Positions 25,939-44,705 of a stretch of 64,000 nt of DNA are shown here, piece by piece. The stretch comes from an uncultured Pseudodesulfovibrio sp. (GTDB lineage: Bacteria; Desulfobacterota; Desulfovibrionia; Desulfovibrionales; Desulfovibrionaceae): NCBI RefSeq assembly GCF_963662885.2, contig NZ_CAXXKG010000011.1, positions 8,282-72,281 of the forward strand, read 5' to 3'. Numbering within the stretch: the stretch's first letter is position 1; every line of letters begins with the position of its first letter. A model generated the notes under the pieces. It was not told the origin of the DNA. It saw only the letters and a list, made by a program, of their open reading frames with translations, and did no database searches. The translations under genes were made by a program, and so were the position numbers.

Positions 25939-27042
<1,104 letters not shown>

Positions 27043-27438: not shown

Positions 27439-27675
27439 GTCAATGGCAATTGGGTGACGATTTTGTGCCGGGCCCATGAAACGCGTCGGTGGAATTTCCG
27501 CTGAAATGTCTGTATACGATGTCTGAAACCGAGGCGCGAGCCGCCCGGAACAGGCGCTGGCCGAAAAACAACTGGCTACGAGCCCTGGATGATGATTGAA
27601 TGCAAAACCGGCCGAGCGGCCGGAACAAAGTATGACAATACCGATCGCCCGGTAAACGGGCAGGGAGGAATACAC

Positions 27676-29438: not shown

Positions 29439-31526
29439 TTATTTGGATACGGAGACGAAGTGTTCCTGCATGGCAATGGCTCCGCCGCCGCGGTCCCACT
29501 TGTCGATGCCCTTGGGCATGAGCATGTTGTCTGCGGCGCCCATTCCCCGGGCGCGGGACTCGCAAGGCAGGTCGTGGCCGAAGCCGTGGATCATGAAGAC
29601 GGCCTCGGGGTGGACGAAGTCCGTGACGAAGGCCTTGATCTTGGACTTGTAGCCGTTGCTGGACACGGTCACGTATTCGTCCTGTTCGATACCCAGCGCT
29701 TCGGCGCGCTTGGTGTTGATCCACAGGACGTTCTCGGGCATCTGCTCAAAGAGCAGGGAGTTGTTCACGGTGTGGCCCTGGGTGTGCAGCGCGCAACGCC
29801 CGAAGGTGATGCGGAACTTGTCTGCCGGGGGCCGTTCAGGGGCCTCGTAGGGCTTGAGCGACGGCAGGCCGTCGGCCTCAAGTTTGGCGTCGATGATCTG
29901 GACCTTGCCGGACGGCGTCTTGAAAGAGCCTTCCTTCACCGGCTTGTACAGCGGGTCGGAAGCCAGGGAGACGATGCCGGTCTTTTCGAAGTCCTCGATG
30001 GACACGCCGGTGCCTTCGAGCTGGAATTTCCAGATGTCCTCGATGTTGGTGTAGTCCAGTTCCTTGAGCCCCATGCGCTTTGCCAGGCCCGCATAGATTT
30101 CCCAAATGGCCTTGGTGTCGTAGACCGGCTTGATGGCGCGTTTGCGTACCTGGAAGGCGGGCTTGGGACCGTTTTTGGTCATCAGGATCTCGTCCCGCTC
30201 GAGATACGGGGAGATGGGCAGAACCACGTCCGCGTTCCAGGCGGTGTCGGACCAGGAGAAGGTCACGGCCACGAGCAGTTCGATGTCATCCCACTTGGCC
30301 TTGACGTCGTCCTTGTCCGGGAAGGCCATGAGCGGGTCATGACGCTGGGCGATGTACGCCTTGATCGGGTAGGGCTTTTCCTCCACCGCGGCCTCGTAGG
30401 CCAGATGGACCAGCCCAGGGCCCGCGTCGAAGTGCTTGCGGCCTTCCATCCAGCCGATGCCGTCCGCGCGCTGGCCCTCGGGCTTGGGGTAGAGCTCCAT
30501 GAAGCTCTTCAGCCCCTTGGCGCCCACATCGCCAGGCTTGTTCATGAACGGCAGGCCGCCCTTGGCGCCGATGGCACCGAGCAGGGCGTTGATGATGTAG
30601 ATGGTCCGGGTCATGTAGAAGGAGTCGGAGTAGCGCGCTGTCATCCAACCCGGGTGCCAGAGCACGCTCGGGGCGGCCTCGGCAAGTTGGTTACAGAAAT
30701 CGATCAGGCTCGCGGCGGACACGCCGGTCTCGGCCTCGGCCCACTCGGGGGTGTAGGGCTTGACGAACTCCACGAGTTTGTCGAAGTCCTCGACCCAGTC
30801 GGCCACGAACTGCTTGTCATACAGTTCATTATTAATAAGGACGTGGATGACCGCCAGGTTGAAGGCGTAGTCGGTGCCGGGGCGAACCATGAAGAAGTTG
30901 TCCGCCTTGGTGGCGGGAACGTTGGCCCGGATGTCGATGACGGTCAGCTTGCCGCCCTTTTCGAGACCCGCGAACAGGTTGTTCACCTCGGCCACGTTGA
31001 TGGCTTCGAGCATGTTGCGCTGCTGGAGCACCACGTGCTTGGCGTTTTTCAGGTCATAGGACACGCCCTTGCGACCGAAGCCGAACACGGAAAGAGCCGC
31101 GTTCTGCACGTTGCGCGCGCAGGCGGAGTCGTGGTTGTTGTAGTTGGCCGTGCCGATGCCGCGCAGAAAGGCGCGGTAAAAGTCGCGGAACGGGCCGCCG
31201 CGGTCCGAAAACAGAACCGAGTTCTTGCCGTAGGTGTCCTGGATGCGGGTCAACTCGTCGGCCACGTAGTCCAGAGCCTCGTCCCAGGAAACCTGCTTCC
31301 ACTTTCCTTCGCCGCGTTTGCCCGTGCGTACCATGGGGTACTGGGGGCGGTCCTCATCGTAGGTCAGGGCCGTTCCGGCAGCGCCGCGCGGACACAGGGA
31401 ACCCATGATGCCGGGGGCGTCGGGGTTGCCTTGGATATATTCCGCCTTGCCGTCGACCACCTCGACCTCGATGGGGCATCGTACCGAGCACATGCCGCAT
31501 ATGCTCTTGACATATTCCTTAGCCAT
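29439..31526 (-). CDS. molybdopterin (bis-MGD) oxidoreductase catalytic subunit, Psr/Phs-like, with no Tat signal
   Basis: N-terminal FeS motif CGMCSVRCP...C. 695 aa. No twin-arginine leader. Confidence 0.85.
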   Translation of the reverse strand: MAKEYVKSICGMCSVRCPIEVEVVDGKAEYIQGNPDAPGIMGSLCPRGAAGTALTYDEDRPQYPMVRTGKRGEGKWKQVSWDEALDYVADELTRIQDTYGKNSVLFSDRGGPFRDFYRAFLRGIGTANYNNHDSACARNVQNAALSVFGFGRKGVSYDLKNAKHVVLQQRNMLEAINVAEVNNLFAGLEKGGKLTVIDIRANVPATKADNFFMVRPGTDYAFNLAVIHVLINNELYDKQFVADWVEDFDKLVEFVKPYTPEWAEAETGVSAASLIDFCNQLAEAAPSVLWHPGWMTARYSDSFYMTRTIYIINALLGAIGAKGGLPFMNKPGDVGAKGLKSFMELYPKPEGQRADGIGWMEGRKHFDAGPGLVHLAYEAAVEEKPYPIKAYIAQRHDPLMAFPDKDDVKAKWDDIELLVAVTFSWSDTAWNADVVLPISPYLERDEILMTKNGPKPAFQVRKRAIKPVYDTKAIWEIYAGLAKRMGLKELDYTNIEDIWKFQLEGTGVSIEDFEKTGIVSLASDPLYKPVKEGSFKTPSGKVQIIDAKLEADGLPSLKPYEAPERPPADKFRITFGRCALHTQGHTVNNSLLFEQMPENVLWINTKRAEALGIEQDEYVTVSSNGYKSKIKAFVTDFVHPEAVFMIHGFGHDLPCESRARGMGAADNMLMPKGIDKWDRGGGAIAMQEHFVSVSK

Positions 31527-32248: not shown

Positions 32249-32332
32249 ACTGGTACCAAACTCCGCGGCCTTGGGGGACGTGGAGTGAGATTTTGGGGTC
32301 CTTTTAACATTCATTATGAGGAGGAGGTAACT

Positions 32333-33460
32333 GTGTTACGTTCCAAGAAAACTCTCCTGATGCTGGCCCTGGTCGCCGCTGTCTGCCTCATGGCTCAGCC
32401 CGCCCTGGCCGATCGTCTGGCCGACGCCATCGCCGAAGCCAAACCCACTGGTGAGCCCGGCTACATGGGCATCCCCGGCGGTCCGCAGCTGAACATCATC
32501 ATCGGTTTCCTGTGGGCGATCTGGGTAGGCTGGATTTTCTCCACCGTCGGCGCTTTTGGCGGCATCATGGCCGGTGTCGGTCACATCACCATCTATGGTC
32601 TGGGTGACTACGCCAGCTCTTTCGGCAAGGGCTCCAAGATGAACAAGGTCGTCACCGACTCCATCCGCGTGTCCAACCAGTGGTTGGTCGGTTGCTCCGC
32701 GGCCCTGTCCTCCTTCAACTACTACAAGGCCGGTCGTCTGGTTCTGCCGCTGGGTATCGCCCTGGCCATCGGTTCCGTTGCCGGTTCCTGGCTGGTTCCC
32801 TGGCTGACCGCCGGTAAGATCAGCCTGAAGGCCTACCTCGGCTACTTCGGTCTCTTCGTCCTGTTCCTGGGTTGCTACCTGTTCTACCAGACCACCCCGA
32901 AGGGCCAGGCCGGTAAAAAAGCTGCCAAGCAGGCTGCCGAAGCCTTCCAGAAGTCCGTCAAGGAACAGCAGCACGGCGGTACCGTCGATATGGCCGAGAT
33001 GGGCGTGAAGGTTCAGAAGTTCACCCCGACCATCTGCGAGTTCACCTTCTTCGGCGTCGAGTTCAAGTTCAACCCCCTGATCCCCGTGGTCGGCGGTTTC
33101 TGCATCGCGGCCCTGGCCTCCTTCCTGGGTGTCGGCGGCGGCTTCCTGCTGGTGCCGTTCCTGACCTCCGTGGCCGGCCTGCCCATGTACCTGGTTGCCG
33201 GTACCTCCGCCCTGGCCGTCCTCATCGGTATGGTCAACTCCATCGCTTCCTACATGCTGCTCAAGCAGACTCCGGTTGCCTGGGGCCTGATCGGCGCCGA
33301 GCTCGTCGGCATCGTCATCGGTTCCATCATCGGACCCAAGACCTCCAAGTTCATCCCGGATAAGGTCCTGAAGTACATCTTCATCGTCCTGGCCGTGTAC
33401 GTTGGTGTCCGCTACACCACCAAGGGCTTCCTGGGCTACTCCATCGTCCCGCCCTTCTAA
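32333..33460 (+). CDS. TauE/SafE-family (DUF81) anion exporter-like membrane protein with N-terminal signal peptide
   Basis: GTG 32333 follows GAGGAGGAGG. Two Gly-rich TM repeats (GAFGGIMAGVG, LGVGGGFLLVP). Confidence 0.7.
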   Translation: MLRSKKTLLMLALVAAVCLMAQPALADRLADAIAEAKPTGEPGYMGIPGGPQLNIIIGFLWAIWVGWIFSTVGAFGGIMAGVGHITIYGLGDYASSFGKGSKMNKVVTDSIRVSNQWLVGCSAALSSFNYYKAGRLVLPLGIALAIGSVAGSWLVPWLTAGKISLKAYLGYFGLFVLFLGCYLFYQTTPKGQAGKKAAKQAAEAFQKSVKEQQHGGTVDMAEMGVKVQKFTPTICEFTFFGVEFKFNPLIPVVGGFCIAALASFLGVGGGFLLVPFLTSVAGLPMYLVAGTSALAVLIGMVNSIASYMLLKQTPVAWGLIGAELVGIVIGSIIGPKTSKFIPDKVLKYIFIVLAVYVGVRYTTKGFLGYSIVPPF

Positions 33461-33534: not shown

Positions 33535-34191
33535 ATGACCGGCCAAATCGTATACGAATTTCTCGACCCCTGGATGATCTGGGCCTTTAGAACCACCGGC
33601 AACGCCTACGTGGGCTTCGCCATCGGCCTGATCTGGGTCTCCCTCGTGGCAACCGTCATCGGCGAGTTGTGCATGGCCGGGGTCTATTTCACCAACAAGA
33701 AACATTTCCGGACCATCAACCGGGACATGGTCGACCACCACAATCTGTCGGTCAAGGCGCTGGGCGCCAAGAACAAGACCGCTTGGAAGGCCTGCAACTC
33801 CATCGCCAACGACGCCTTCGGCAAGAACTTCTTTGCCCGCATCGCGTTGTTCGCCTCGTCCCTGTGGGTGGTCCCGTTCGGCATCGGCTGGTTGTTCTAC
33901 CGCTTCGGGCACGTTGACTTCACCGTGCCGTTCCTCGGTTCCGTTGGTCCTGCTTTCGTCTTCATTCCGGTCTACATCCTGGTCCGCTACCTGTTCAGCC
34001 TGGCCAAGCCGTGGCTGCCGGTTTTCAAGACCATCCGCCAGAAGGTCAAGGACAACGAGGCCGGGGACGAGATGCTCGAGTTCACGGACCTGCTCAGTGA
34101 AGAGGACAAGAAGGAATACATGCGCAAAAAGGAGCGGGCCAAGGTCAAGCCTGGGCTCATTGAGAGCAAGCCGGTCCCCGAAGGGTCCTAG
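33535..34191 (+). CDS. hypothetical membrane protein
   Basis: 218 aa with about four hydrophobic helices and a Lys/Glu-rich tail. Confidence 0.6.
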   Translation: MTGQIVYEFLDPWMIWAFRTTGNAYVGFAIGLIWVSLVATVIGELCMAGVYFTNKKHFRTINRDMVDHHNLSVKALGAKNKTAWKACNSIANDAFGKNFFARIALFASSLWVVPFGIGWLFYRFGHVDFTVPFLGSVGPAFVFIPVYILVRYLFSLAKPWLPVFKTIRQKVKDNEAGDEMLEFTDLLSEEDKKEYMRKKERAKVKPGLIESKPVPEGS

Positions 34192-34208
34192 CGATTTCGC
34201 AAAAGGAA

Positions 34209-34238
34209 AAGCCGCCCCACGGGGCGGCTTTGTTCTTT
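34209..34238 (+). terminator. rho-independent terminator
   Basis: aagccgccc-cacg-gggcggctt followed by tgttcttt. Confidence 0.75.
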
Positions 34239-34259: not shown

Positions 34260-34772
34260 TTAGGGGGCGGCTTTTTCCACGGCCTCCAGGAAGCCGGGAA
34301 GGTCCGAGGGGCCGATCAGGTAGTACCGATCTTCGGTCTGGATGCAGAGCACGTCCGAGCGGTTGGTGACCACGACCGCCTCACGGCCGTCCTTGATCTC
34401 CACCATGCCGGATCGGTAGGCGCCGAAGGTCATGTACTTCTTGGTCTTGGTGAATTTGAAGTCCGCATCCTTTTTCAGGTCCACGCGGAAGGTCTTGACC
34501 ACCGAGGCCCAGGGGATGACCGCCGAAGCGAACGGCGGGGCGGCCAGCAGGACGCCTTCATCCGCTACCGTGACCGTTGCCCGCTTGGGCGTGATGTAGA
34601 GCATGTACCAGTAGAACATGGACAGCGGTCCGGCCACGGCGATGAGGCAGATACCGGTCCAGGTCAGGCCGGAGTTGAAGCTCCAGGCCACGGCCGCGGC
34701 GACAATGGCCACGATCAGGAGGAAAAAGGTGAGCACGGTCTTGCTCATGGGGATCTTGAAAATCGTCGTCAT
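34260..34772 (-). CDS. membrane protein: two TM helices + PH-like soluble domain (tentative)
   Basis: ATG 34772 follows AAGGAG. 170 aa. Confidence 0.55.
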   Translation of the reverse strand: MTTIFKIPMSKTVLTFFLLIVAIVAAAVAWSFNSGLTWTGICLIAVAGPLSMFYWYMLYITPKRATVTVADEGVLLAAPPFASAVIPWASVVKTFRVDLKKDADFKFTKTKKYMTFGAYRSGMVEIKDGREAVVVTNRSDVLCIQTEDRYYLIGPSDLPGFLEAVEKAAP

Positions 34773-34934
34773 GGGAACTCCTTGCTTGGGCACGCCCGTG
34801 TGCTGGTCCCCTTCATACTGCCTTGGGGCCTTGTTGCCAAGGGATAAGACTTGTTGGAATACGCCTTGAATTTCTGTACTGTTTCAGAGCACGTCCGAAA
34901 CGCGGCGCGAGTAGCGCCCGGAACCGATGATCCG

Positions 34935-35876
34935 ATGATGAACAAACTGAAAATCCGTATGACAACCTGGGCGATGGTACTGGCGCTTCTTCTGCCCGTG
35001 GCAGTCATGTCCGGGTGCTCGGACGAGAAGCCCGTCAAGGTCGATCTGTCCAAGCGCGAGGATCTGGTGGCCCCCCGTATGGACGCGGCCATCACCTATG
35101 CCTACCTGCCGCAGTACTCCCACACCATCTCCTATCAGCGCCACCGCAAGCTTATCGAATACCTGCGCCGGACAACCGGCCTGCCCCTGCGCCAGATCTT
35201 CCCCGACACCTTCGAGGAGCACGTCAAGATGGTCGAGCGCGGGGAGATAGACATTTCCTACTCCAATCCGTTCGTCTACGTGCGTCTGGCCAAGGCCGGC
35301 GCCCAGGCCTTCGCCCGGGTCATAGAACCCTCGGGCGAGCCCAATTTCCGCGGGCAGATCATCGCCCGTTCGGACAACGCGGCCATCAATTCCATCAGTG
35401 ATTGCCGGGGCAAGCGCTGGATCGCGGTGGATCCCAATTCGGCGGGCGGCTATCTCTTTCCTCTGGGATTGTTCTACGACCACAATATCCATTCGTCCGA
35501 TTTCGAGACCCTGGATTTTGCGCCCGGTCCGGGCGGCAAGCAGGAAAAGGTCGTCCTGGCCGTACATGCGGGCGTGTACGACATCGGGACCATTCGCAAA
35601 GGTACTCTGGACGTGGTCAAAAACAAGATCGACCTCGGTTCCATCCGTGTCCTGGCCGAAACCCGCGCGTATCCCGGCTGGGTGTACGCGGCTCGCAAGG
35701 GGCTCGACCCGGCGGTGGTGGAAACCATTGCCAAGGCCATGTTCGCCCTGGACGAGGACACCCCGGAGCACCGGGCCATTCTGTCCGCCGCGGGCATGAA
35801 GGGCATCATCCCGGCTCGCGATCTGGACTACGATCCGGTCAGGGAACTGGCCGTGAAACTGAAACTGGACCGGTAG
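34935..35876 (+). CDS. PhnD-fold periplasmic substrate-binding lipoprotein
   Basis: Lipobox VMSGC. PhnD-like GEIDISYSNPFVYV and DPNSAGGYLFP. No ABC permease or ATPase gene nearby. Confidence 0.8.
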   Translation: MMNKLKIRMTTWAMVLALLLPVAVMSGCSDEKPVKVDLSKREDLVAPRMDAAITYAYLPQYSHTISYQRHRKLIEYLRRTTGLPLRQIFPDTFEEHVKMVERGEIDISYSNPFVYVRLAKAGAQAFARVIEPSGEPNFRGQIIARSDNAAINSISDCRGKRWIAVDPNSAGGYLFPLGLFYDHNIHSSDFETLDFAPGPGGKQEKVVLAVHAGVYDIGTIRKGTLDVVKNKIDLGSIRVLAETRAYPGWVYAARKGLDPAVVETIAKAMFALDEDTPEHRAILSAAGMKGIIPARDLDYDPVRELAVKLKLDR

Positions 35877-35882
35877 GCGTTC

Positions 35883-37943
35883 ATGCGTATTATCCCTCGC
35901 CTCAAGTTCCGCACCAAGCTCAATCTGGGCATGTCCGCCATCCTCGTGGGCATGGCCGTTCTCCTGCTGCCGCTGGTCGGAACCATGAGCGCCAACTCTC
36001 TGGTGGAGGAGAGCAAGAAGCGCGGATCGTCCCTGGCCGAAGGGTTGTCCGTGCGCGCCGTGGACCCCATGCTTGCCCGCGACTTCCTGCGGCTCAAGAA
36101 CATGGTCGACGAGCAGTCCACGGTCGAGGACGTGATCTACGCCTTCATCCAGGACAAGAGCGGCTTTGTCCTGGTCCATACCTTCCAGAAGGGGTTCCCG
36201 GTGGACCTCATCGAGGCCAACAAGGCTGATAACGGCGAGTCCCTGCACATCCAGTTGCTGGCCGACGGGTCCAGGCGGATCTACGATTTCGCCGCTCCGA
36301 TTCTGGTTTCGGATGGCAGACTGGGCACCGTGCGCATCGGCCTGTCTCAGGCCCGTATCCAGATGGCCGTGCAGCGCCAGCTGACCCTCATGGCCGGTCT
36401 GTTTACCGGAGCGTTGATCCTGGCCACGTCGCTGGGCACCATCTTCGCCCGGCGGGTCACCGCCCGGCTGGGGCGGCTGCGTTCCCATGCCGAGGAGATG
36501 CTCACCGGCAATCTGGACATCACCTCCGGCCCCACATGGGGCATCCACTGCTGGGAGAAGCAGGAGTGCGGCATCACCCAGTGTCCGGCCTACGGCGAGA
36601 CACGGCGGCGGTGCTGGTACATCGCCGGGACCATGTGCCCGGACTGCAACAACGAGGGCAATTTCCAATGCAGGCTGGAGTCCTGCCGCCGGTGCGTGGT
36701 CTACCGCGAAAACGCGGGCGACGAGATTCAGGACCTGGCCGAGACCTTCGACGTCATGGCCCTGTCGCTCAAGAGCCATATCGAAGAGCTGCGCGATGCC
36801 GAGCGTAATCTGCGTGACCAGCAGCGGCTGACCCGGACCATTCTGGACGTTTCCCCGGACCGTGTCTCCCTGGTGGACGCGACCATGCGCTATCGAGGCT
36901 GCAACAAGAGCTTCGCCCAGTCCGTGGGCATGTCCCTGGCCGAGATCGAGGGCAAAACCGACTTCGACCTCTTCCCCGAAAGCGAGGCCGAGGAGCGCCA
37001 CATGGCCGCCCGGGACATCCTCCAGTCCGGGCGCAGGCTGGACACCCAGCTCATGGTTGAAACGGGCGGGGGCGAGCACTGGTTCCACGTGGTCTGCGTG
37101 CCGGTCTTCAACGACGAGGGACGCATTGACGGGCTGTTGCGGACCGACCGCGATATTTCTGACATCAAACGCTATGAGAATCAGCTCATCCAGGCGCAGA
37201 AGATGGAGTCACTGGGCTTGCTCGCCGGTGGCGTGGCCCACGAGATCAACACCCCGCTCGGCATCATTCTGGGCTATGCCCAGCTCCTGCAGGAGGATGT
37301 GGATGCGGACAGCCAGATCCATCAGGACCTGGCCATCATCGAAAAGCAGACCCAGGTCTGCAAGAAGATCGTGGCCGACCTGCTCGGTTTCTCCCGCCAG
37401 ACCCAGTCGGCCAAGCGCGAGATGTGCTTCAACAACTCGGTCATGGAGGCGGTTTCCCTGGTGCGTCACACCCTGGAGCTGGACAAGGTGGCGATCGTCA
37501 CCCAGCTCGACGACCGCTATCCGATCATCTACGGCGACCCGGAGAAGCTCAAACAGGTCTGGATCAATCTGCTGACCAACGCGCGCGACGCCATGGCCGG
37601 GCAGGGCGGGACCATCCTCATCCGCACCCGGTTGGACACCCCTGTGGGCATCGTCTCCCTGTGGGTGGCCGACAACGGGTCAGGTATTGCCGAAGATGCG
37701 CTCAAAAAGATTTTTGATCCGTTTTACAGCACTAAGGCCGTGGATAAAGGCACCGGCCTAGGGCTGTCCGTCTCTTTCGGGATCATCGAAGACCACGGCG
37801 GCGATATTCACGCCGTGAGCCCGGTTCCCGACGACTTCGGTTTCCCTGAAGCGAAAGAGGGAATCGAGGGCGGCGGGACGGTATTTGAAGTGAACCTCCC
37901 CCTGGACCATCAGGCCGATGGCGGGGAACCGGAAAAGGAGTAG
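35883..37943 (+). CDS. sensor histidine kinase: periplasmic domain, HAMP with a 9-Cys insertion, PAS, HisKA/HATPase
   Basis: H-box VAHEINTPL. DNGSGI and GTGLGLS boxes. Cys-rich CWEKQECGITQCP...CRLESCRRC at 36549-36695. Confidence 0.9.
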   Translation: MRIIPRLKFRTKLNLGMSAILVGMAVLLLPLVGTMSANSLVEESKKRGSSLAEGLSVRAVDPMLARDFLRLKNMVDEQSTVEDVIYAFIQDKSGFVLVHTFQKGFPVDLIEANKADNGESLHIQLLADGSRRIYDFAAPILVSDGRLGTVRIGLSQARIQMAVQRQLTLMAGLFTGALILATSLGTIFARRVTARLGRLRSHAEEMLTGNLDITSGPTWGIHCWEKQECGITQCPAYGETRRRCWYIAGTMCPDCNNEGNFQCRLESCRRCVVYRENAGDEIQDLAETFDVMALSLKSHIEELRDAERNLRDQQRLTRTILDVSPDRVSLVDATMRYRGCNKSFAQSVGMSLAEIEGKTDFDLFPESEAEERHMAARDILQSGRRLDTQLMVETGGGEHWFHVVCVPVFNDEGRIDGLLRTDRDISDIKRYENQLIQAQKMESLGLLAGGVAHEINTPLGIILGYAQLLQEDVDADSQIHQDLAIIEKQTQVCKKIVADLLGFSRQTQSAKREMCFNNSVMEAVSLVRHTLELDKVAIVTQLDDRYPIIYGDPEKLKQVWINLLTNARDAMAGQGGTILIRTRLDTPVGIVSLWVADNGSGIAEDALKKIFDPFYSTKAVDKGTGLGLSVSFGIIEDHGGDIHAVSPVPDDFGFPEAKEGIEGGGTVFEVNLPLDHQADGGEPEKE

Positions 37944-37945
37944 AT

Positions 37946-38311
37946 ATGGCTAATATATTGGTTCTCGACGACATCAGCGACGCCGGAATGTTGGTAAAAC
38001 GCATCCTGGAACGCAAAGGGCACAAGGTGTGGAATTTCACCGAGGAAGAGGATGCCCTGAAGCATGCGGCCGGGACGAAGATCGACCTGGCCATCCTGGA
38101 CATCAAGCTCAAGAAGATGACCGGCGTCGAGGCCCTTGAGGAACTCAAGAAGGTCAACCCGGACATGATGGCGATCATGCTGACCGGCTATCCCACCCTG
38201 GAGACCGCCCGCGAGTCGCTCCGGCTCGGGGCTCAGGAGTACTGCGTCAAGCCCATCAACAAGGAGGAACTGGAGGTCAAGGTGGCCGAGGTCCTCAACG
38301 GCGCGGAGTAG
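37946..38311 (+). CDS. single-domain response regulator
   Basis: NILVLDD, ILDIKLKKMTG, LTGY, EYCVKP. 121 aa. Confidence 0.9.
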   Translation: MANILVLDDISDAGMLVKRILERKGHKVWNFTEEEDALKHAAGTKIDLAILDIKLKKMTGVEALEELKKVNPDMMAIMLTGYPTLETARESLRLGAQEYCVKPINKEELEVKVAEVLNGAE

Positions 38312-38364
38312 GCGGGGCCAGGGCCGGCGCAACGGAAACCATATCGTATAGCCAAGGACGTTCC

Positions 38365-40818
38365 ATGTATCTCAAGCAGCTCTTCAGGCATTGGACCTAT
38401 CAGGTATTCGCTCCGGGTACCCTGCTTCGGCGCAAGTACGAGGCCTTCAAGTCCCTGCTGGCCCACGACGCAGTGGCCCTGGAACTGGTCGCCGACCTTG
38501 AGGAGATGTTTTACGGCAAGCGGCTGGCCGACCGTCAGCGCGCGCTCTGGATGACCAATCGGTTGTCCTCGGCCGTGTCCACCATGGCCGGGCAGTTGGT
38601 GGAGATGAATCCGACCCGGTACATGGATCTGCCCGAATACTTCCGCAAGATCGATTTCTACGTGCATATGGCGCTTGAGCTCGAACAGCCCGAGGTCGGG
38701 CCGCCGTACATTCTCTCCCTGGAAGAGGCCGGGGTCATGCCGAAGCTGGCAGGCGGCAAGGCGTCCAACCTGGGCCGGGCCAAGGCCCTGGATGGCATCC
38801 CGGTGCCGCCGGGTTTCGTGGTCACGGCCAATGCCTTCAACTATTTCATCGACTTCAACGGGCTGGGTGAGGAAATCGAAAAGCGGCTGCGGCAGATGGT
38901 CGTAGGCGACCGGGACCTTCTGGCCCGGCTGACCGCCGAGATGCAGGAGCTCATCCTGGCCGCCGAGGTTCCGGAGGAGATCGCCCGGGGCATCCGCTAC
39001 GGCGTGTCCGAGATCATCAGCGGCGACGACCTCATCGCGGTCCGGTCCAGCGCCCTGGCCGAAGACGGCGAGATATCCTTTGCCGGGCAGTACGCCTCGG
39101 AATTGAACGTCCAGCCCAACGATGTCCTTGAGGCGTACAAGCGGGTCCTGGCGGGCAAGTACTGCCCACGGGCCGTGGCCTACCGTATCTCCAACGGGCT
39201 GACCGACAGCGAGACAGCCATGGCCGTGCTGGTCATTCCCATGGTGGACGCGGACACCGCCGGCGTGCTCTACACCCGCGACCCGGACTGCCGGGGCCGG
39301 GAGGCCATGGGCGTGTACGGCGTGCGCGGCCTGGGCCACGGACTGGTGGACGGCTCCACCTCCCCGGACAAAGCCGTGCTGACCAGGGAAGAGACCCCGC
39401 GTCTGGACCCGGAATGCACCCCGGATGCGGGCGGCCTGCCTTCGGAAGAGTCACTCATCCGGCTTGGCCAACTGGCCATGCGGCTGGAGGAGGCCTTCGG
39501 GCGGCCCCAGGATATCGAGTGGGCCGAGGACGTCACCGGGGAGCTGTATATTCTTCAGACCCGGCCCTTGCAGGAGGAGCGCGAGGAGGCCCTGGCCGTT
39601 CAGGAACCGCTTCCCACGGCCGCCTTTCCCATTGCCCAAGGGCTGGAACGCGCCTCAACGGGCGCGGGCTGCGGCACCGTGTATATCGCCGACACGGGCG
39701 AACGCATCGCCCAGATTCCTGATGGAGCCGTGGTCGTCACTCCGAGCCTCAAGCCCTCGCTGTTGACCTTCATCGGAAGAATGAACGGGGTCATCTCGGC
39801 CACGGGCAGCCGGGCCAGCCATTTTGCTTCCGTGGCCCGCGAATGGGGTGTGCCCGTGGTGGTCGGCGACGTGGACGCAGGGCTCGAACCCGGGCAGCTC
39901 GTCACCGTGGATGGCACGGGCGGCGCCATCTATGAAGGCTGCGTGGAAGAGATCATGACCAGGGCGCGCGAAGGCGAGCAGATTTCCGAACGGGTGGTGG
40001 AGCAGTATGCCAAGGTCGCCCCTCTGACCGTGCGCCTGAACCTGACCGACCCGCAGAGCGAGGACTTCACCCCCATGGGCTGCAAGTCCCTGCACGACGT
40101 TATCCGGTTCTGCCACGAGAAGTCCGTGAACGAGATGTTCGCGGTCATGGACAAGAAGGGACGCGGCATGCACTCGGCCAAGCGCCTGGAAACCAGTCTC
40201 CCGCTGGTCATGTACGTGCTGGATTTGGGCGACGGTTTCTTCGCCAACGCGGGCGAGGGCAAGACCGTGTCGCCCCAGGACATCAAGTGCCGTCCCATGT
40301 GGGCCCTGTGGTACGGATTGTCCGACGACCGGGTCAAATGGCCTTCGCGGCTGACGGCCATGGACTGGGAAGAGTTCGACAAGGTTTCGGGCGGCATCTT
40401 CAGCTTCGACTCCAAGCTGCTGGCCAGCTACGGGCTGATATCCGAGGATTATCTGCACCTGATGGTCCGTTTCGGCTACCACTTCTCGGTGGTGGATACC
40501 ATCTGCGGTCCCGAGCAGGGGGCCAACTACATCAATTTTCGCTTCAAGGGCGGCGGGGCAGGCTTTGACCAGCGATTGCTCCGGCTGGAATTCATCCGCA
40601 GGATTCTGGAACACTACGGGTTCGAGACCACCACGCGCGGCGACATGATCGACGCCAAATGTTCCCGGTTGCCGGAAAACGACACCCGGCGGCTGCTCAT
40701 GCGGCTGGGCTATCTGATGGCCGTGACCCGGCTCATGGATATGCGCATGGACGATGAGGAACAGGTCGCCATCGAGGTCGAGCGGTTCATCAACGATGCG
40801 GAGTCGCGCGATGGCTGA
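38365..40818 (+). CDS. PEP-synthase/PPDK-like dikinase, paralog of 6323-8938
   Basis: AVRSSALAEDGEISFAGQY and PQDIEWAED. Swivel motif GSRASHFASVAREWGVPVVVG (His codon 39820-39822). Shared C-terminal domain from LNLTDPQSEDF. Confidence 0.85.
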   Translation: MYLKQLFRHWTYQVFAPGTLLRRKYEAFKSLLAHDAVALELVADLEEMFYGKRLADRQRALWMTNRLSSAVSTMAGQLVEMNPTRYMDLPEYFRKIDFYVHMALELEQPEVGPPYILSLEEAGVMPKLAGGKASNLGRAKALDGIPVPPGFVVTANAFNYFIDFNGLGEEIEKRLRQMVVGDRDLLARLTAEMQELILAAEVPEEIARGIRYGVSEIISGDDLIAVRSSALAEDGEISFAGQYASELNVQPNDVLEAYKRVLAGKYCPRAVAYRISNGLTDSETAMAVLVIPMVDADTAGVLYTRDPDCRGREAMGVYGVRGLGHGLVDGSTSPDKAVLTREETPRLDPECTPDAGGLPSEESLIRLGQLAMRLEEAFGRPQDIEWAEDVTGELYILQTRPLQEEREEALAVQEPLPTAAFPIAQGLERASTGAGCGTVYIADTGERIAQIPDGAVVVTPSLKPSLLTFIGRMNGVISATGSRASHFASVAREWGVPVVVGDVDAGLEPGQLVTVDGTGGAIYEGCVEEIMTRAREGEQISERVVEQYAKVAPLTVRLNLTDPQSEDFTPMGCKSLHDVIRFCHEKSVNEMFAVMDKKGRGMHSAKRLETSLPLVMYVLDLGDGFFANAGEGKTVSPQDIKCRPMWALWYGLSDDRVKWPSRLTAMDWEEFDKVSGGIFSFDSKLLASYGLISEDYLHLMVRFGYHFSVVDTICGPEQGANYINFRFKGGGAGFDQRLLRLEFIRRILEHYGFETTTRGDMIDAKCSRLPENDTRRLLMRLGYLMAVTRLMDMRMDDEEQVAIEVERFINDAESRDG

Positions 40819-41875
40819 TAAGACCGCCGCCTACAAGGTGACCTGGGTCACGGACCAGCTCGGCGTGGGCAGCGCGCCCATGAGCTACCCGCAATTGGAC
40901 GCCATCCGCGCCCAGGGCGTGGACGCCATTCTCAACCTGTGCGGCGAGTTCTGCGACCTGCACGACATCGAGAAGGGGGCCGGTTTCGAGGTCCATTACC
41001 TGCCGTTGGAAGACGAGGAGGCCCCGGGTCTGATCGAGTTGGAAAAGACCCTGGCATGGCTGGACGAAGCCATCTATCTGGGCAAGAAGGTGCTGATCCA
41101 CTGCCGCCACGGCATAGGGCGTACCGGCACGGTGCTCAACGCCTATCTGCTGCGGCGCGGTCTGGGGCACAAGCTGGCGGGCAAGGCGCTCAAGAAGCTC
41201 AAGAGCAAACCAGCCAACTTCGTCCAGTGGCGGACCATCCGCAAATACGGCAAGCAGTCCGGCCAGCTGACCGTTCGAGAGCCGTCCCTTGAATTCAAGC
41301 GGCTGGTGGATTTGTCCCCGTTTTTCAATGACTACAGCGAACTGGTCGCGCGCGTGGACGAGAGCGGCCATGCTTCCGAAGGGCTGGCCTGCGGTCTGGA
41401 TCACAGCCAGTGCTGCACCACGCCGGTCTCGCTGACCCTGGCCGAGGCCGTGTATATTTCCCATCGCATCAACCAAAAGCTGTCCGGAGAGGAGCGGCTC
41501 AAGGTCATCGAGCGGGCCGTTGCCACGGCGCAGGCCGAGCGCAAGGCGGCCAGCGACGTGTCTTCAGGCAAGGACGGTGAATACTGCCTGTCCGAGGCCG
41601 GTGCCGTCTGTCCCCTGCTTGAGAACGACAAGTGCCTGCTCTTCGAGCACCGGCCCATCCAGTGCCGCGCCTTCGGTCTGGATCAGGACGATGCCGGTGG
41701 ATTGTGGGGGACCATGATCAATCCGGCGCTGAACAAGATCTCGGCGGAAATCTGGTTCGCCTACACCGGCTCCATGGCGTCCGGCGACATGCCGCACTTC
41801 GCCTTGCCGGACGTGGTTTCCGGCAAGTTCGTGGAGACCATCTTCCGGTTCATGATGCGGCAGGGGCTGGAATAG
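40811..41875 (+). CDS. dual-specificity (HCX5R) protein-tyrosine-phosphatase-like domain fused to a YkgJ/UPF0153-type Cys-rich domain
   Basis: VLIHCRHGIGRTG (Cys codon 41102-41104). C-terminal CGLDHSQCC...CPLLENDKCLLFEHRPIQCR. Its ATG overlaps the dikinase stop (ATGGCTGA). Confidence 0.8.
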   Translation: MADKTAAYKVTWVTDQLGVGSAPMSYPQLDAIRAQGVDAILNLCGEFCDLHDIEKGAGFEVHYLPLEDEEAPGLIELEKTLAWLDEAIYLGKKVLIHCRHGIGRTGTVLNAYLLRRGLGHKLAGKALKKLKSKPANFVQWRTIRKYGKQSGQLTVREPSLEFKRLVDLSPFFNDYSELVARVDESGHASEGLACGLDHSQCCTTPVSLTLAEAVYISHRINQKLSGEERLKVIERAVATAQAERKAASDVSSGKDGEYCLSEAGAVCPLLENDKCLLFEHRPIQCRAFGLDQDDAGGLWGTMINPALNKISAEIWFAYTGSMASGDMPHFALPDVVSGKFVETIFRFMMRQGLE

Positions 41876-41881
41876 CCCGGC

Positions 41882-42736
41882 CTAGACCGAGCAGTGCAAC
41901 TCCACAAAGGGGTTGGCCAGCTGCGGCAGGTAGGGCTCGGCAAAGAAGACGTGTCCTTCCCTGGGCAGGGTCAGGGGCGCGGCATCCGGGTCGGTGGACA
42001 CGCTGACCGTGTCCTTGGTGAAGGTCACGGTCATGGGCACCACTTCCTGTTCCGCCTCACTGCAAAGACTTTCCCTGTTTTCCGGTACATGGCAGTGGGT
42101 GTGCCCGTCCGGATGGACCACCGTCAGCTTGGTCAGCGTGGTGATCACCCGGCAGACCTTCCCTTCCTCATCGAATTCCAATGAATTGGCATCCCCGTTG
42201 ATACCCACGGCGTCTGGGTCGTAGGCAGTCATTTCGCCTGCCCGGGTGGGCACGGTGGTGGGTTTGGCCGGTTCCAGGGAGCGGACCTTGCCGTCGCGTG
42301 TGAAGCTGATGCCGATGCGCGCCTCGATGGGTCCGACAGGGGTAGGCACGGACAGGGTCTCTCCCGGCCACAGGGTCAGGCTGCGCAGGCTGCGGTCGTC
42401 GTAGAAGCTGACGCTCAGCACCTTGACCTGGATCAGTCCGATGGGCGTGGTCAGGCTGACGGGCTTGGACAGCCCCGCCTCGTCGTCCTGGCTCCAATAG
42501 CCCGACAACTTGCCGTTCAGGGGGAAGATGCGGTTGATCGTGCCGTTCGGGTGAAAGGATACCAACTCCCCCGGAATCTCACCGATGGAGGTGGAGAATA
42601 TGGTCTGTTTCTCAAGAGGCACGGATTTTACCGCGCCCGTGGCGTGATATTCCACGGGGAGAATCTCCCGTTTCCTGAGGTCGTCGTCAGTGTGTTGGGG
42701 AATCAGTTCACCGTACTGCGTGGATATGGTCTGCAT
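41882..42736 (-). CDS. hypothetical protein made of short beta-hairpin-like repeats (MORN-variant-like, tentative)
   Basis: GAGAGG RBS. Recurring xFxxxGxxxxx units (VSFHPNGTINRI, ISFTRDGKVRSL, LEFDEEGKVCRV). Confidence 0.6.
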   Translation of the reverse strand: MQTISTQYGELIPQHTDDDLRKREILPVEYHATGAVKSVPLEKQTIFSTSIGEIPGELVSFHPNGTINRIFPLNGKLSGYWSQDDEAGLSKPVSLTTPIGLIQVKVLSVSFYDDRSLRSLTLWPGETLSVPTPVGPIEARIGISFTRDGKVRSLEPAKPTTVPTRAGEMTAYDPDAVGINGDANSLEFDEEGKVCRVITTLTKLTVVHPDGHTHCHVPENRESLCSEAEQEVVPMTVTFTKDTVSVSTDPDAAPLTLPREGHVFFAEPYLPQLANPFVELHCSV

Positions 42737-43466
42737 GATAACCTCTCTTGGAGTCTTGGAAGGCGGAACGGTGACTGAGGTGGCAACCGTCCGGGATCCT
42801 TGAGGGTGCGGGGCGTCCGGCGAGGCCGTGGCGTCCGATGAAAAGCAATGTCAGGTAGCTGATGAGCAGCAGGGCCAGGGAGAGCAGGCCCGCCTGTCCG
42901 TATTCCAGGGATTCGGTGTGCTCGAAGATGGCGATGGAAGCTACCTTGGTCTGGCCCGGTATGGAGCCGCCGAGCATCAGGGCCACACCGAACTCGCCCA
43001 CGGTGTGCGCGAAGATCAGCGCGGCCGAGGCGGTCAGTCCGCCCAGGGCGTTGGGCAGGATGACATGGCAGAATGTCTGGAAATGGGTCATGCCCGAACA
43101 GCGGGCGGCTTCGATGATGCCCGGATCGATTTTTTCAAAGGCAGCGCGCATGGGCAGTACGCCGAAGGGCAGGCTGTAGATGAGCGAGCCGATAACCAGT
43201 CCGGAAAAGGAAAAGGGCAGGGGGAATCCGAAGAGCGATTCCCAGGCCGCGCCCAGGGGCGAGGTCGGGCTCATTATCATGAGCAGGCCGAAGCCGAGCA
43301 CCGTGGGCGGCAGGACCATGGGCAGGTTGCAGGCCGCTTCCACGAACCGCTTGCCCGGCATGCTCGACATGGCCAGCCAATAGGCCAGCGGCATGCACAG
43401 GCAGAGCAGCAGAGGCGTGACCGCCAGGGCCAGCTTGCCGGTTATCAGGAGCGCCGTGAAGTCCAT
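42708..43466 (-). CDS. modB: molybdate ABC transporter permease, with an atypical 40-aa C-terminal tail
   Basis: ATG 43466 gives MDFTALLITGKLALA. ModB-like EAA loop IEAARCSGMTHFQTF. The tail overlaps the next gene by 29 nt. Confidence 0.8.
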   Translation of the reverse strand: MDFTALLITGKLALAVTPLLLCLCMPLAYWLAMSSMPGKRFVEAACNLPMVLPPTVLGFGLLMIMSPTSPLGAAWESLFGFPLPFSFSGLVIGSLIYSLPFGVLPMRAAFEKIDPGIIEAARCSGMTHFQTFCHVILPNALGGLTASAALIFAHTVGEFGVALMLGGSIPGQTKVASIAIFEHTESLEYGQAGLLSLALLLISYLTLLFIGRHGLAGRPAPSRIPDGCHLSHRSAFQDSKRGYHADHIHAVR

Positions 43467-43473
43467 GCCGCTC

Positions 43474-43602
43474 CTATGGGGTAAGGGTGGACGGGGACGA
43501 CTGGGCGACAAGACCCTGCGCCGCACTGGGCGGCATGGCCGTGGAAGCCGTGCCGGACAGAACGCAAAGCCACAGACAGATGTATACGAACTTCTTGAAC
43601 AC
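43474..43602 (-). CDS. 42-aa signal-peptide-like mini-ORF (possible modA remnant)
   Basis: AGGAGG then GTG. VFKKFVYICLWLCVLSGTASTAMPPSAAQGLVAQSSPSTLTP. It ends 7 nt before the modB ATG. Confidence 0.3.
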   Translation of the reverse strand: MFKKFVYICLWLCVLSGTASTAMPPSAAQGLVAQSSPSTLTP

Positions 43603-43610
43603 GGGACCTC

Positions 43611-44705
43611 CTAGTTCTTGACGAGTTTGGTGAGTTCACTGTCGGTCAGGGGGCGTTCCAGCTCCCAGGCCAGCTTTCTTACTTCATCGACAAGGGCCGA
43701 GATGCCCTGTTCCGGAAGGTCGAGGCCGTGGTCCGCAAGGGCGTTGGCGACCGCCGCGCGCCCACTTTTTCCGCCAACAGCGACCATCCGGTTCGCGCCG
43801 ATGCGGGCGGGGTCGAAGGGTTCGAAAAGTTCAGGCGACTTGCTGAGAGCGTGCGCGTGAAGGCCGGACTCGCAAGCGAAAATGTCCTTGCCCGCGATCG
43901 CCTTGGTTCGGGGAATCGGCACCCCGGCAGCTTGAGAAACGAAATGGCAGAGGTCGCGAAGGTCTTCAACTTTGTACGCATGGCTGTTCTCCTTGAGTGT
44001 CAGGTAGGCGGCCAGTTCTTCCGTGGCCGCGATGCCGGAACGCTCGCCGATGCCGAGCAGGCTGACGTCGGCATAGTTGGCACCGGCGGACAGCGCGGTA
44101 ACCGCGTTGCCAGTGGCCATGCCGAAATCGTCGTGGCAGTGCACGGCCAGGTCGATGTCCAGTTCCTTCTTGAAGGTTGCGACCAGTTCCGCCATCGCAG
44201 GCGGGGTCAAAAGGCCCAGGGAGTCGGACAGGCGCACGCGGGACGCGCCCACGTCCTGCGCCAGTCCGGCTGCCTTCAGAGCGAAGTCCCGGTCGGCTCT
44301 GGAAAGGTCTTCCAGTCCGACGGACACGTATTCCAAGCCCAGGAGCCGGGCCGCGAGAACGGTGCGGGCCAGGCGTTCCAAAAGCCCCTCGCGGTCGGTC
44401 CCGAGTCTGTTTTCGATATGCAGGTCGGATACGGGCACGCCGATATTGATTCGGTCGATCCCAAGGCCCGCGGCCTTGCGGATGTCAGCCTCGCGGCAGG
44501 GCGACCATACGGACAGGGCGGTGCGGCCGCGCCGCGTCCCTATTCTATATATGAGTTCGTCCAGACCTTCCTGGCCCACCCAGCCCAGCTCGATCTCGTC
44601 CACTCCTATGGACATGAGGCCGGACACGATCCGTTCCTTCGCCTCCATGGAGAAGTAGGCTCCAAAGAGCTGAGCGCCTTCTCTGAGTGTGGTGTCGATC
44701 AACAT
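43611..44705 (-). CDS. nifV: homocitrate synthase
   Basis: DTTLREGAQ and HCHDDFGMATGN motifs. 364 aa. Adjacent to nifH. Confidence 0.88.
   Translation of the reverse strand: MLIDTTLREGAQLFGAYFSMEAKERIVSGLMSIGVDEIELGWVGQEGLDELIYRIGTRRGRTALSVWSPCREADIRKAAGLGIDRINIGVPVSDLHIENRLGTDREGLLERLARTVLAARLLGLEYVSVGLEDLSRADRDFALKAAGLAQDVGASRVRLSDSLGLLTPPAMAELVATFKKELDIDLAVHCHDDFGMATGNAVTALSAGANYADVSLLGIGERSGIAATEELAAYLTLKENSHAYKVEDLRDLCHFVSQAAGVPIPRTKAIAGKDIFACESGLHAHALSKSPELFEPFDPARIGANRMVAVGGKSGRAAVANALADHGLDLPEQGISALVDEVRKLAWELERPLTDSELTKLVKN

Follow-up and report, generated by a model that had tools for sequence, protein, structure and literature searches.

A dikinase and Cys phosphatase pair with a two-component system in the nitrate cluster of a Pseudodesulfovibrio sp.: a putative receiver-gated switch for anion entry

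The stretch of DNA analyzed here (the window) comprises 64,000 nucleotides from an uncultured Pseudodesulfovibrio sp. (RefSeq assembly GCF_963662885.2, contig NZ_CAXXKG010000011.1, positions 8,282 to 72,281 of the forward strand) and contains a run of five plus-strand genes that encode a PhnD-fold lipoprotein, a sensor histidine kinase, a single-domain receiver, an 817-residue dikinase-like protein (the dikinase), and a 354-residue phosphatase fusion (the phosphatase). Judged by gene order and domain content, these genes make up the regulatory half of what has been described in other sulfate reducers as the "nitrate cluster", and the dikinase and phosphatase appear to be a functional pair under two-component control because their adjacency is conserved, their genes are translationally coupled, and natural fusions of the two occur. 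The best explanation of the locus is that the five genes form the control half of a conserved seven-to-eight-gene module in which a TauE permease and its membrane partner are the working part. As a tentative reading, to which we give a probability of roughly 0.45, the control half adjusts the activity of this anion permease by phosphorylation and dephosphorylation, as a switch that is driven by the sensor and gated by the receiver.

The five open reading frames (ORFs) were confirmed at the positions listed in Table 1. They are separated by 6, 2, and 53 nt and, at the last junction, the dikinase and phosphatase genes overlap by 8 nt (ATGGCTGA, 40811–40818). The ORF list, the Pfam matches, and a codon check bear out what an initial annotation, made from the sequence alone, had said of the five co-directional genes, their spacing and overlap, and the catalytic His codon at 39820–39822. 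That annotation began at position 34935; its five genes stand, but the module is larger, since the genes for the TauE permease and a 218-residue membrane protein, which lie directly upstream of the five-gene set, had been left out.

The dikinase, the phosphatase, and the sensor proteins

Databases label the dikinase "pyruvate, water dikinase," and its top NCBIfam matches are models of PpsA, the phosphoenolpyruvate (PEP) synthase. The order of an ATP-grasp domain followed by a swivel phosphohistidine domain, together with the motifs of both, is the same as in PpsA and pyruvate phosphate dikinase (PPDK). Conservation among 118 full-length homologues extends to the blocks VRSSALAED..SFAGQ, QDIEWA, and LQTRP, which align to the PpsA structures 8a8e, 9dae, and 2ols, and the catalytic His486 (codon CAT) lies within a GSRASH motif, in which five of six positions are more than 95% conserved in the same homologues. 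Because the ATP-grasp blocks and GSRASH are conserved, the dikinase should autophosphorylate. The residue two positions before His486 is Ala, whereas PpsA and PPDK have at this position a regulatory Thr, the site of regulation by PSRP/PDRP.

The similarity to PpsA is confined to the first two domains, which are all that the NCBIfam PpsA alignments span, with scores of 271 bits against a cutoff of 598 (PRK06464) and 253 against 740 (TIGR01418). The matches to sequences in the PDB (8a8e at E 2e-57, 9dae, 2ols, and structures of rifampicin phosphotransferase, Rph) end near residue 565. Residues 1–127 and 531–817 had no Pfam match even at E ≤ 10, PEP-utilizers_C included, and NCBIfam returned nothing for the N-terminal extension or the C-terminal domain. 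Residues 552–817 were unmatched when the whole dikinase was compared with PDB sequences, and a 20-sequence profile of this domain (alignment A1) gave only noise against them (E 0.09). The AlphaFold2 (AF2) model of the C-terminal domain (predicted local distance difference test score, pLDDT, 76; predicted template modeling score, pTM, 0.77) has a mixed sheet and helices and no β/α barrel; a Foldseek search of the PDB with this model gave nothing below E 1e-3, and TIM-barrel enzymes were not among the matches. Weak recurrent matches to secretion-chaperone/YbjN-like folds (2plg, 4h5b, 3kxy; template modeling (TM) scores of 0.2–0.37) were not relied on. The absence of PEP-utilizers_C, the PpsA scores below cutoff, and the predicted α+β fold show that the dikinase is not a PEP synthase: an unrelated domain of 266 residues replaces the PEP/pyruvate TIM barrel of PpsA and PPDK, to which the initial annotation could not match the last ~260 residues, and an additional 127 residues are present at the N terminus.

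An exhaustive profile search of 1.84 billion representatives, clustered at 50% identity, found the C-terminal domain in 1307 representative clusters; in the best 150 listed it nearly always ends proteins of ~800–870 residues. Across 143 representatives, some of them only 34–40% identical to the query, the residues H576, D577, R580, H583, E584, Y695, H705, D710, F726, G728, G729, R739, and D791 are at least 97% conserved, and the invariant His/Asp/Glu/Arg set looks like a metal- and anion-binding catalytic site. With intact catalytic motifs and a new third domain, the dikinase is predicted to be a functional phosphotransferase with an acceptor other than pyruvate. The N-terminal extension is conserved across the 118 homologues and is retained in distant members, since PPDK_N begins at about residues 116–134 in the six full-length distant members scanned; it is a family-specific feature that PpsA does not have and is a candidate receiver-docking region.

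In Rph, the prodigiosin ligases PigC/RedH, and plant glucan-water dikinase (GWD), which belong to the same superfamily, the third domain sets a non-pyruvate acceptor. None of them has receiver control or permease linkage, and the dikinase scores 150–183 bits against the NCBIfam models of this group, for which the cutoffs are 999–1350. Rph and PigC have the acceptor domain between the ATP-grasp domain and a C-terminal His domain, whereas the His domain of the dikinase is central and its score with the Rph model NF041857 is 183 bits (cutoff, 999).

The phosphatase has an HCRHGIGRTG P-loop (HC98RHGIGR104TG; Cys98 codon, 41102–41104), with the general-acid residue Asp68 about 30 residues before the P-loop Cys. 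C98, R104, and D68 do not vary among 57 genomic orthologues or among the 26 sequences of alignment A2; C44 is also invariant, and C48 is conserved in at least 90% of alignment A2 and in 89% of the 57 genomic orthologues. Pfam DSPc, the dual-specificity phosphatase (DSP) domain, matches at 46 bits (cutoff, 33.5). Foldseek with the AF2 model (pLDDT 74) retrieved Tk-PTP, SsoPTP, KAP, MKP5, and VHZ with TM scores of ~0.8 on the target and E ~1e-7; only the DSP half was matched, and the half with the six-Cys (Cys6) module gave no matches. With an HCX5R motif and a predicted DSP fold, the domain is, as modeled, nearest to protein tyrosine phosphatases (PTPs) and dual-specificity phosphatases. It shares the HCX5R(T) P-loop, the general-acid Asp, and the compact fold with Tk-PTP, SsoPTP, VHZ/DUSP23, and KAP but differs from them in its 190-residue C-terminal six-Cys region, in the extra C44 and C48, and in being always encoded with, or fused to, a dikinase. 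The Pfam name Tc-R-P would point to a "polymorphic toxin," a reading that was rejected: there is no toxin-system context, and the protein is cytoplasmic and always coupled to a dikinase.

The initial annotation had described the protein as an HCX5R phosphatase core fused to a YkgJ-type module. The core is confirmed; the module matches PF03692 at a subthreshold 19.4–20.9 bits (Pfam cutoff, 23), and its Cys residues are conserved, with C194, C201, C267, C275, and C285 invariant and C202 present in 95% of the 57 orthologues, and with all six invariant in alignment A2. The Cys6 module probably makes the phosphatase redox- or metal-sensitive. Homologues carry the JGI name "Fe-S-cluster containing protein." One homologue (P0279), 85% identical, is filed under a eukaryotic transcriptome (a eukprot TRINITY contig) and is almost certainly bacterial contamination.

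The lipoprotein has a lipobox that reads VMSGC in its sequence. It scores below all NCBIfam cutoffs for transporter equivalogs (TIGR03431, 92 bits against 261; TIGR01098, 94 against 112) and also matches the TtrS sensor domain in NCBIfam. No ABC permease or ATPase genes are adjacent to the lipoprotein gene, and the gene that follows it is that of the kinase; we propose that the lipoprotein is a ligand receptor for this kinase. The kinase has a periplasmic sCache_3_2 domain and a HAMP domain that is interrupted by a Cys-rich insert. Within the insert, C223, C229, C234, C244, C268, and C271 are invariant in 49 orthologues and C252 and C255 are 80–84% conserved, with the spacing C-x5-C-x4-C-x9-C … C-x2-C; the insert probably binds a metal or an Fe-S cluster on the cytoplasmic side, and the kinase may therefore respond to redox state or sulfide as well as to its periplasmic ligand. 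With the Cys6 module of the phosphatase, probable metal or redox sites would thus be found at both ends of the pathway. The proteins have the elements of a two-component system: the HisKA H-box (AHEINTPL) and HATPase domain in the kinase, and in the receiver the acidic pocket (D8/D9), the phospho-Asp (D52), T80, and K102, all read from the sequences. The receiver is without an output domain and is proposed to be an allosteric switch of the dikinase.

Linkage across genomes and the nitrate cluster

Linkage was scored in 80 loci, one genome per species, in which genes were mapped by tblastn. Most of the loci are from Thermodesulfobacteriota (Desulfovibrionales, Desulfobulbales, Desulfobacterales, Desulfobaccales, and Syntrophobacterales). 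The phosphatase gene is directly downstream of the dikinase gene in 70 of the 77 species-level loci with room for it (68 scored by script plus L001 and L006, in which the genes overlap), and the Cys-rich half is present in 66 of the 68 script-scored phosphatase loci. A receiver gene is directly upstream of the dikinase in 55 of 71 loci, and those loci that have no single-domain receiver have instead an adjoining hybrid kinase that includes one. Where 6 kb of upstream sequence was available (60 loci), the kinase was found upstream in 38, the PhnD-like gene in 40, TauE in 41, and a homologue of the 218-residue protein beside TauE in 37. The arrangement is far beyond chance. The receiver-dikinase-phosphatase order, the conservation of which the initial annotation had named as a check, holds across loci, as do its pairing of the two enzymes and its association of the pair with a two-component system having an output-less receiver.

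In-frame fusions of dikinase and phosphatase occur in at least four cases: L061 (a Desulfobaculum isolate), L076, P0172 (1252 residues), and P0199/L094 (1205 residues), the last in a PhnD-kinase-receiver-fusion operon. In L093 the two genes are on opposite strands yet remain together. Six loci, five assigned to Desulfobulbales and one to an unclassified deltaproteobacterial metagenome-assembled genome, are without a phosphatase and have the order hybrid kinase (CHASE5…receiver), TauE, membrane protein, dikinase; in L021, the stop of the membrane protein gene overlaps the start of the dikinase gene.

Some distant members of the dikinase family have TauE with a different small membrane protein (Alph_Pro_TM), and a single-domain receiver and kinase alongside. 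The 218-residue protein of the window was considered as kin to this Alph_Pro_TM companion, and this was rejected (hhalign probability 0.1%). In L084 (6681–12461), a 1048-residue member lies between an MFS transporter and the chromate transporter ChrA, with a 3-nt gap and with ChrB nearby, and the C-terminal domain family is therefore tied to more than one kind of oxyanion transporter. LysE, GDT1, and TerC membrane proteins also occur as neighbors of distant members. In L081 (787–1491), a DF-family (seleno)protein redox domain fused to an enzyme of the ArsC/low-molecular-weight PTP type is encoded ahead of a distant dikinase, with a spacing of 1 nt, and this dikinase is prolonged at its C terminus by an additional lectin-like region; here a different Cys-P-loop enzyme occupies the place of the DSP, an analogous replacement. 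A few distant members have no obvious partner in their neighborhood. In L091 (1457–9547), two paralogous dikinases are separated by a dCache/PAS histidine kinase and a single-domain receiver, and Usp, CBS, and PilZ proteins are encoded around them.

Seven proteins of the window are collinear with those of an Oleidesulfovibrio locus (L095; DUF169-TauE-hypothetical-PhnD-kinase-receiver-dikinase-DSP), in the genus of Desulfovibrio alaskensis G20, and are 37–74% identical to them (TauE, 68%). The initial annotation did not recognize the cassette as a characterized system, but this locus corresponds to the nitrate cluster of Korte et al. (2014), DVU0251–DVU0245 in D. vulgaris Hildenborough and Dde_0597–Dde_0605 in G20, for which mutant phenotypes and no biochemistry are reported (PMC4001038). 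In the published order, a TauE-like permease is followed by a conserved hypothetical protein, a binding protein of the PtxB/phosphonate type, a kinase with HAMP and PAS domains, a regulator that consists of a receiver only, a PPDK_N and mobile-domain protein, and a dual-specificity phosphatase (PMC4001038, Table 3). Orthology to the DVU and Dde genes was assigned indirectly, by order, domain content, and gene sizes and by way of the Oleidesulfovibrio and Nitratidesulfovibrio loci; the homologue search returned members from both of these genera and none labeled D. vulgaris Hildenborough. The G20 list and the Oleidesulfovibrio locus include a DUF169 gene that the window does not have. The window also differs from the published cluster in an inserted opposite-strand gene for a bacterial PH-domain (bPH) protein and in an intact kinase gene, which in D. 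vulgaris is a pseudogene.

Transposon insertion in any one of five genes (those for the permease, membrane protein, binding protein, receiver, or dikinase) allows growth in 100 mM nitrate, and the permease mutant has the strongest nitrate resistance in D. vulgaris (PMC4001038). In contrast, the D. vulgaris phosphatase mutant stays nitrate-inhibited, with a fitness of −6.04 (PMC4001038). A later paper regards the cluster as putatively transporting thiosulfate and as having a high affinity for nitrate (PMC9723548), and the main text of Trotter et al. (2023) does not mention it. In the literature searched, no biochemical role was found for the dikinase or phosphatase of the cluster, which is treated by Korte et al. 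(2014) and in brief citations only.

Proposed mechanism and alternative readings

In the proposed switch, the PhnD-type lipoprotein would bind a periplasmic, thiosulfate-like oxyanion and signal to the Cache/HAMP/PAS kinase, which would phosphorylate the output-less receiver; the phospho-receiver would then bind the dikinase and turn it on. The dikinase would load His486 from ATP (with the β-phosphate, as in PpsA and PPDK), and the phosphate would move from His486 to an acceptor held by the new, putatively metal-binding C-terminal domain; the likeliest acceptor is a protein belonging to the permease complex. The Cys phosphatase, the gene of which is translationally coupled, would strip the phosphate from the acceptor, with redox or metal sensitivity probably conferred by the Cys6 module. 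Phosphorylation would make the permease active so that the anion flows in, and dephosphorylation would turn it off. The TauE permease is most likely the effector of the module, with the 218-residue protein as its partner. Gene content, domain composition, intact catalytic motifs, linkage, and fusions are seen in the sequences, and the mutant phenotypes are published; what we infer is how the receiver couples to the dikinase, what the acceptor is, and which way the effect runs, and the "writer-eraser" description of the initial annotation is kept in this sense, as drawn from comparative and genetic data and with a putative acceptor.

This switch is favored because an output-less receiver is encoded beside the dikinase, linkage to transporters is family-wide, the phosphatase has a protein-phosphatase-like fold, the two enzymes are fused in some genomes, and the D. 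vulgaris phenotypes are opposite. Resistant dikinase mutants and a sensitive phosphatase mutant are as expected if the kinase opens, and the phosphatase closes, anion entry. The phosphotransferase system (PTS) offers, by analogy, a precedent for a swivel-His relay that controls transporters: Enzyme I or EI-Ntr acts through HPr/NPr and EIIA on LacY, MalK, TrkA, and KdpD, and would be a model for the proposed output. Enzyme I differs in using PEP as donor through a TIM barrel and in having an N-terminal HPr-binding domain and no ATP-grasp domain; the dikinase matches the Enzyme I model TIGR01417 in the mobile domain only (21 bits; cutoff, 342). No HPr or EIIA genes are present at the locus, where reversal would instead be by the Cys phosphatase.

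Several points weigh against the switch. We know of no ATP-using member of the superfamily that phosphorylates a protein, and the dense invariant set of the C-terminal domain resembles a docking surface less than it does an active site for a small molecule or metal. The occurrence of distant members beside unrelated transporters, or beside none, is hard to reconcile with recognition of one permease. In the window, the permease genes form a separate transcription unit. That the acceptor is putative also counts against the proposal. The G20 phosphatase mutant is mildly nitrate-resistant (+2.08), and the histidine kinase of D. vulgaris is a pseudogene, yet the phenotype of the receiver mutant is strong (PMC4001038). 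The permease substrate, moreover, is a hypothesis of the original authors only, who suggested a "leaky thiosulfate transporter" (PMC4001038).

The features of the C-terminal domain that are awkward for a protein acceptor (HD..R..HE, H705, D710, GG, R739, and D791, resembling a catalytic metal or anion site) lead to an alternative in which the dikinase phosphorylates a small molecule held there. The permease would import an oxyanion or a hydroxylated sulfonate- or phosphonate-like metabolite (X), which the dikinase would activate (ATP + X + H2O → AMP + Pi + X-P), and the CX5R enzyme with its Cys6/redox module would hydrolyze or reductively attack X-P in the manner of ArsC or adenosine 5'-phosphosulfate (APS) reductase; nitrate toxicity would result from import and mis-activation. 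The characterized relatives in which the third domain is replaced (Rph, PigC/RedH, GWD, and phenylphosphate synthase) all act on small molecules or glycans, the transporters near distant members (TauE, ChrA) carry tetrahedral oxyanions, and the ArsC-like reductase in one such locus is fused to a DF-family redox domain. C44 and C48 of the phosphatase with its Cys6 module, the recurrence of a ferredoxin-like gene beside TauE, and the D. vulgaris phenotypes, which fit a dikinase that makes a toxic product and a phosphatase that removes it, point the same way. However, no such phosphorylated oxyanion is known in biology and the chemistry is as yet unseen; a futile cycle would result if both kinase and phosphatase acted on one metabolite, the phosphatase fold is nearest to protein phosphatases, and metabolic enzymes are not usually gated by two-component receivers. 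Nor is it obvious that nitrate entry would stop when a downstream enzyme is lost. We regard substrate activation as the main rival of the switch, although an unlikely one.

The receiver itself could be the acceptor, if phosphate passed from the phospho-His of the dikinase to the receiver Asp by an ATP-driven route parallel to the kinase and the receiver then acted on the permease. The position of the receiver gene, and the resistance of both receiver and dikinase mutants in D. vulgaris with its kinase pseudogene, would suit such an alternative phosphodonor, which is nevertheless very unlikely: many members with no receiver nearby keep the invariant C-terminal residues, an acyl phosphate would be an unexpected substrate for a Cys phosphatase, and the coupling and fusions of dikinase and phosphatase would be left unexplained. 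A glycan acceptor has a parallel in plants, where GWD, of the same superfamily, is functionally paired with the DSP-type phosphatases SEX4 and LSF2, and some distant members have a weak lectin/ConA-like C-terminal extension (Glyco_hydro_59_C, E ~1e-5). GWD has N-terminal carbohydrate-binding modules and a His domain that precedes the C-terminal nucleotide-binding domain, whereas the dikinase has the opposite order and, like its close relatives, no carbohydrate-binding module in Pfam; its neighbors are permeases and sensors rather than glycan enzymes, and the mutant phenotypes concern sensitivity to anions. The GWD/SEX4 comparison made in the initial annotation is in this anion-transport context an analogy only, and a bacterial counterpart of that cycle acting on a polysaccharide is improbable in the extreme. 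The database label and the top-ranking PpsA models would make the dikinase an ordinary PEP synthase that lies by chance beside an unrelated phosphatase and two-component system. With PpsA similarity restricted to two domains at 271 of the required 598 bits, no PEP-utilizers_C, a predicted fold that is not a TIM barrel, and phosphatase adjacency and fusions conserved across orders, this can hardly be credited at all. The remaining probability belongs to explanations beyond those listed.

The locus is known genetically, and the enzyme and phosphatase superfamilies are known; what is new is an acceptor domain with no sequence or structural relatives in these searches and the family-wide coupling of the dikinases to Cys-P-loop enzymes, receivers, and membrane transporters. 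It is possible, if somewhat doubtful, that the family of ~1300 clusters is an unrecognized class of ATP-driven swivel-histidine kinases beyond central metabolism, directed at proteins or at oxyanions. If so, they would be the first "protein, water dikinases," with membrane transport proteins as their targets and Cys phosphatases to reset them, and would add a new type to the protein kinases of bacteria; or an inorganic or organic oxyanion would be phosphorylated so that a CX5R/redox enzyme can process it, which would be new chemistry in organisms of the sulfur cycle. Either would account for the gating of oxyanion entry in sulfate reducers and for their becoming resistant to nitrate. Injection of nitrate and other oxyanions into oil reservoirs is used to keep sulfate reducers from producing sulfide, and resistance to nitrate arises by mutation of the nitrate cluster, which makes the cluster relevant to the control of souring. 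The proposed switch gives a phenotype that has stood unexplained for a decade a testable mechanism with defined residues (His486, Cys98, and receiver Asp52), and the widespread mis-annotation as "pyruvate, water dikinase" is corrected.

Features and neighbors of the locus

Table 1. Features of the module and its flanks, with positions in the window and counterparts in the nitrate clusters of D. vulgaris Hildenborough (DVU) and D. alaskensis G20 (Dde)
Feature	Position	Strand	Evidence	Counterpart
2x[4Fe-4S] ferredoxin-like protein, DmsB/TtrB-like, 149 aa	31799–32248	+	Pfam Fer4_11, E 1.8e-26	
TauE/SafE (TSUP) family anion permease	32285–33460	+	Pfam TauE, E 7e-25	DVU0251/Dde_0598
218-aa multi-pass membrane protein	33535–34191	+	no Pfam or NCBIfam family	DVU0250/Dde_0600
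Bidirectional terminator-like hairpin	34208–34231	no strand	10-bp stem, 7 GC pairs, T-runs on both strands	
Bacterial PH-domain membrane protein	34260–34793	-	Pfam bPH_5, E 1.7e-8	
PhnD-fold periplasmic binding lipoprotein	34935–35876	+	Pfam Phosphonate-bd (PF12974), E 1e-61; lipobox	DVU0249/Dde_0601
Sensor histidine kinase	35883–37943	+	Pfam sCache_3_2, HAMP, PAS_4, HisKA, HATPase_c	
Cys-rich insert within kinase HAMP, aa 223–271	36549–36695	+	invariant Cys, 49 orthologues	
Single-domain CheY-type receiver, 121 aa	37946–38311	+	Pfam Response_reg, E 1.5e-22	DVU0247/Dde_0603
Dikinase gene	38365–40818	+		
Dikinase N-terminal extension, aa 1–127	38365–38745	+	family-specific conservation	
Dikinase ATP-grasp domain (PPDK_N)	38746–39591	+	PF01326, E 2e-68, aa 128–409	
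Dikinase swivel phosphohistidine domain	39715–39924	+	PF00391 (PEP-utilizers mobile domain), E 5e-16, aa 451–520	
Dikinase C-terminal domain, aa 552–817, candidate acceptor domain	40018–40815	+	conserved; without family match	
Phosphatase gene	40811–41875	+		
Cys-based DSP/PTP phosphatase domain	40811–41305	+	Pfam Tc-R-P, DSPc, PTP-SAK	
Cys6 module of phosphatase, YkgJ/CxxCxxCC-like	41378–41680	+	PF03692 below cutoff; conserved Cys	

The 218-residue membrane protein, which has no match in Pfam or NCBIfam, has the invariant residues D11, R19, N54, N88, W119, and R123 (alignment A3). The terminator-like hairpin divides the permease unit from the convergent bPH gene, and a promoter scan gave no more sites than were found in shuffled sequence. 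The bPH gene, on the opposite strand between the permease pair and the sensor operon, is kept in Pseudodesulfovibrio and some other Desulfovibrionaceae; it has the same position in L001–L006, L012, L013, L019, L022, L023, L049, and L053 and is absent from most other loci, and its membership of the module is uncertain.

The ferredoxin-like gene ends 36 nt upstream of the TauE gene, and its product scores below the NCBIfam cutoffs for DmsB/TtrB-like proteins. A homologue adjoins TauE on the upstream side in 5 of the 22 loci in which that side is visible, and the protein is possibly an accessory with no part in the core. Divergent from it is a gene for a molybdopterin oxidoreductase (29439–31526, minus strand), which is probably cytoplasmic because its Fe4S4 domain begins at residue 5. 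These two neighbors hint that the transported anion may be reduced.

Downstream, a 284-residue ORF (41882–42736, minus strand) is convergent with the phosphatase gene; it has no Pfam or NCBIfam match and is conserved in the two closest genomes only (L001 and L002). The other neighbors are ordinary: an ACR3 arsenite efflux pump (25939–27042, minus strand), a phosphoglucomutase/phosphomannomutase (27589–29034, plus strand), an ATP-binding cassette (ABC) transporter permease subunit (BPD_transp_1; 42708–43526, minus strand), and a homocitrate-synthase-like protein (HMGL/HCS_D2; 43611–44705, minus strand).

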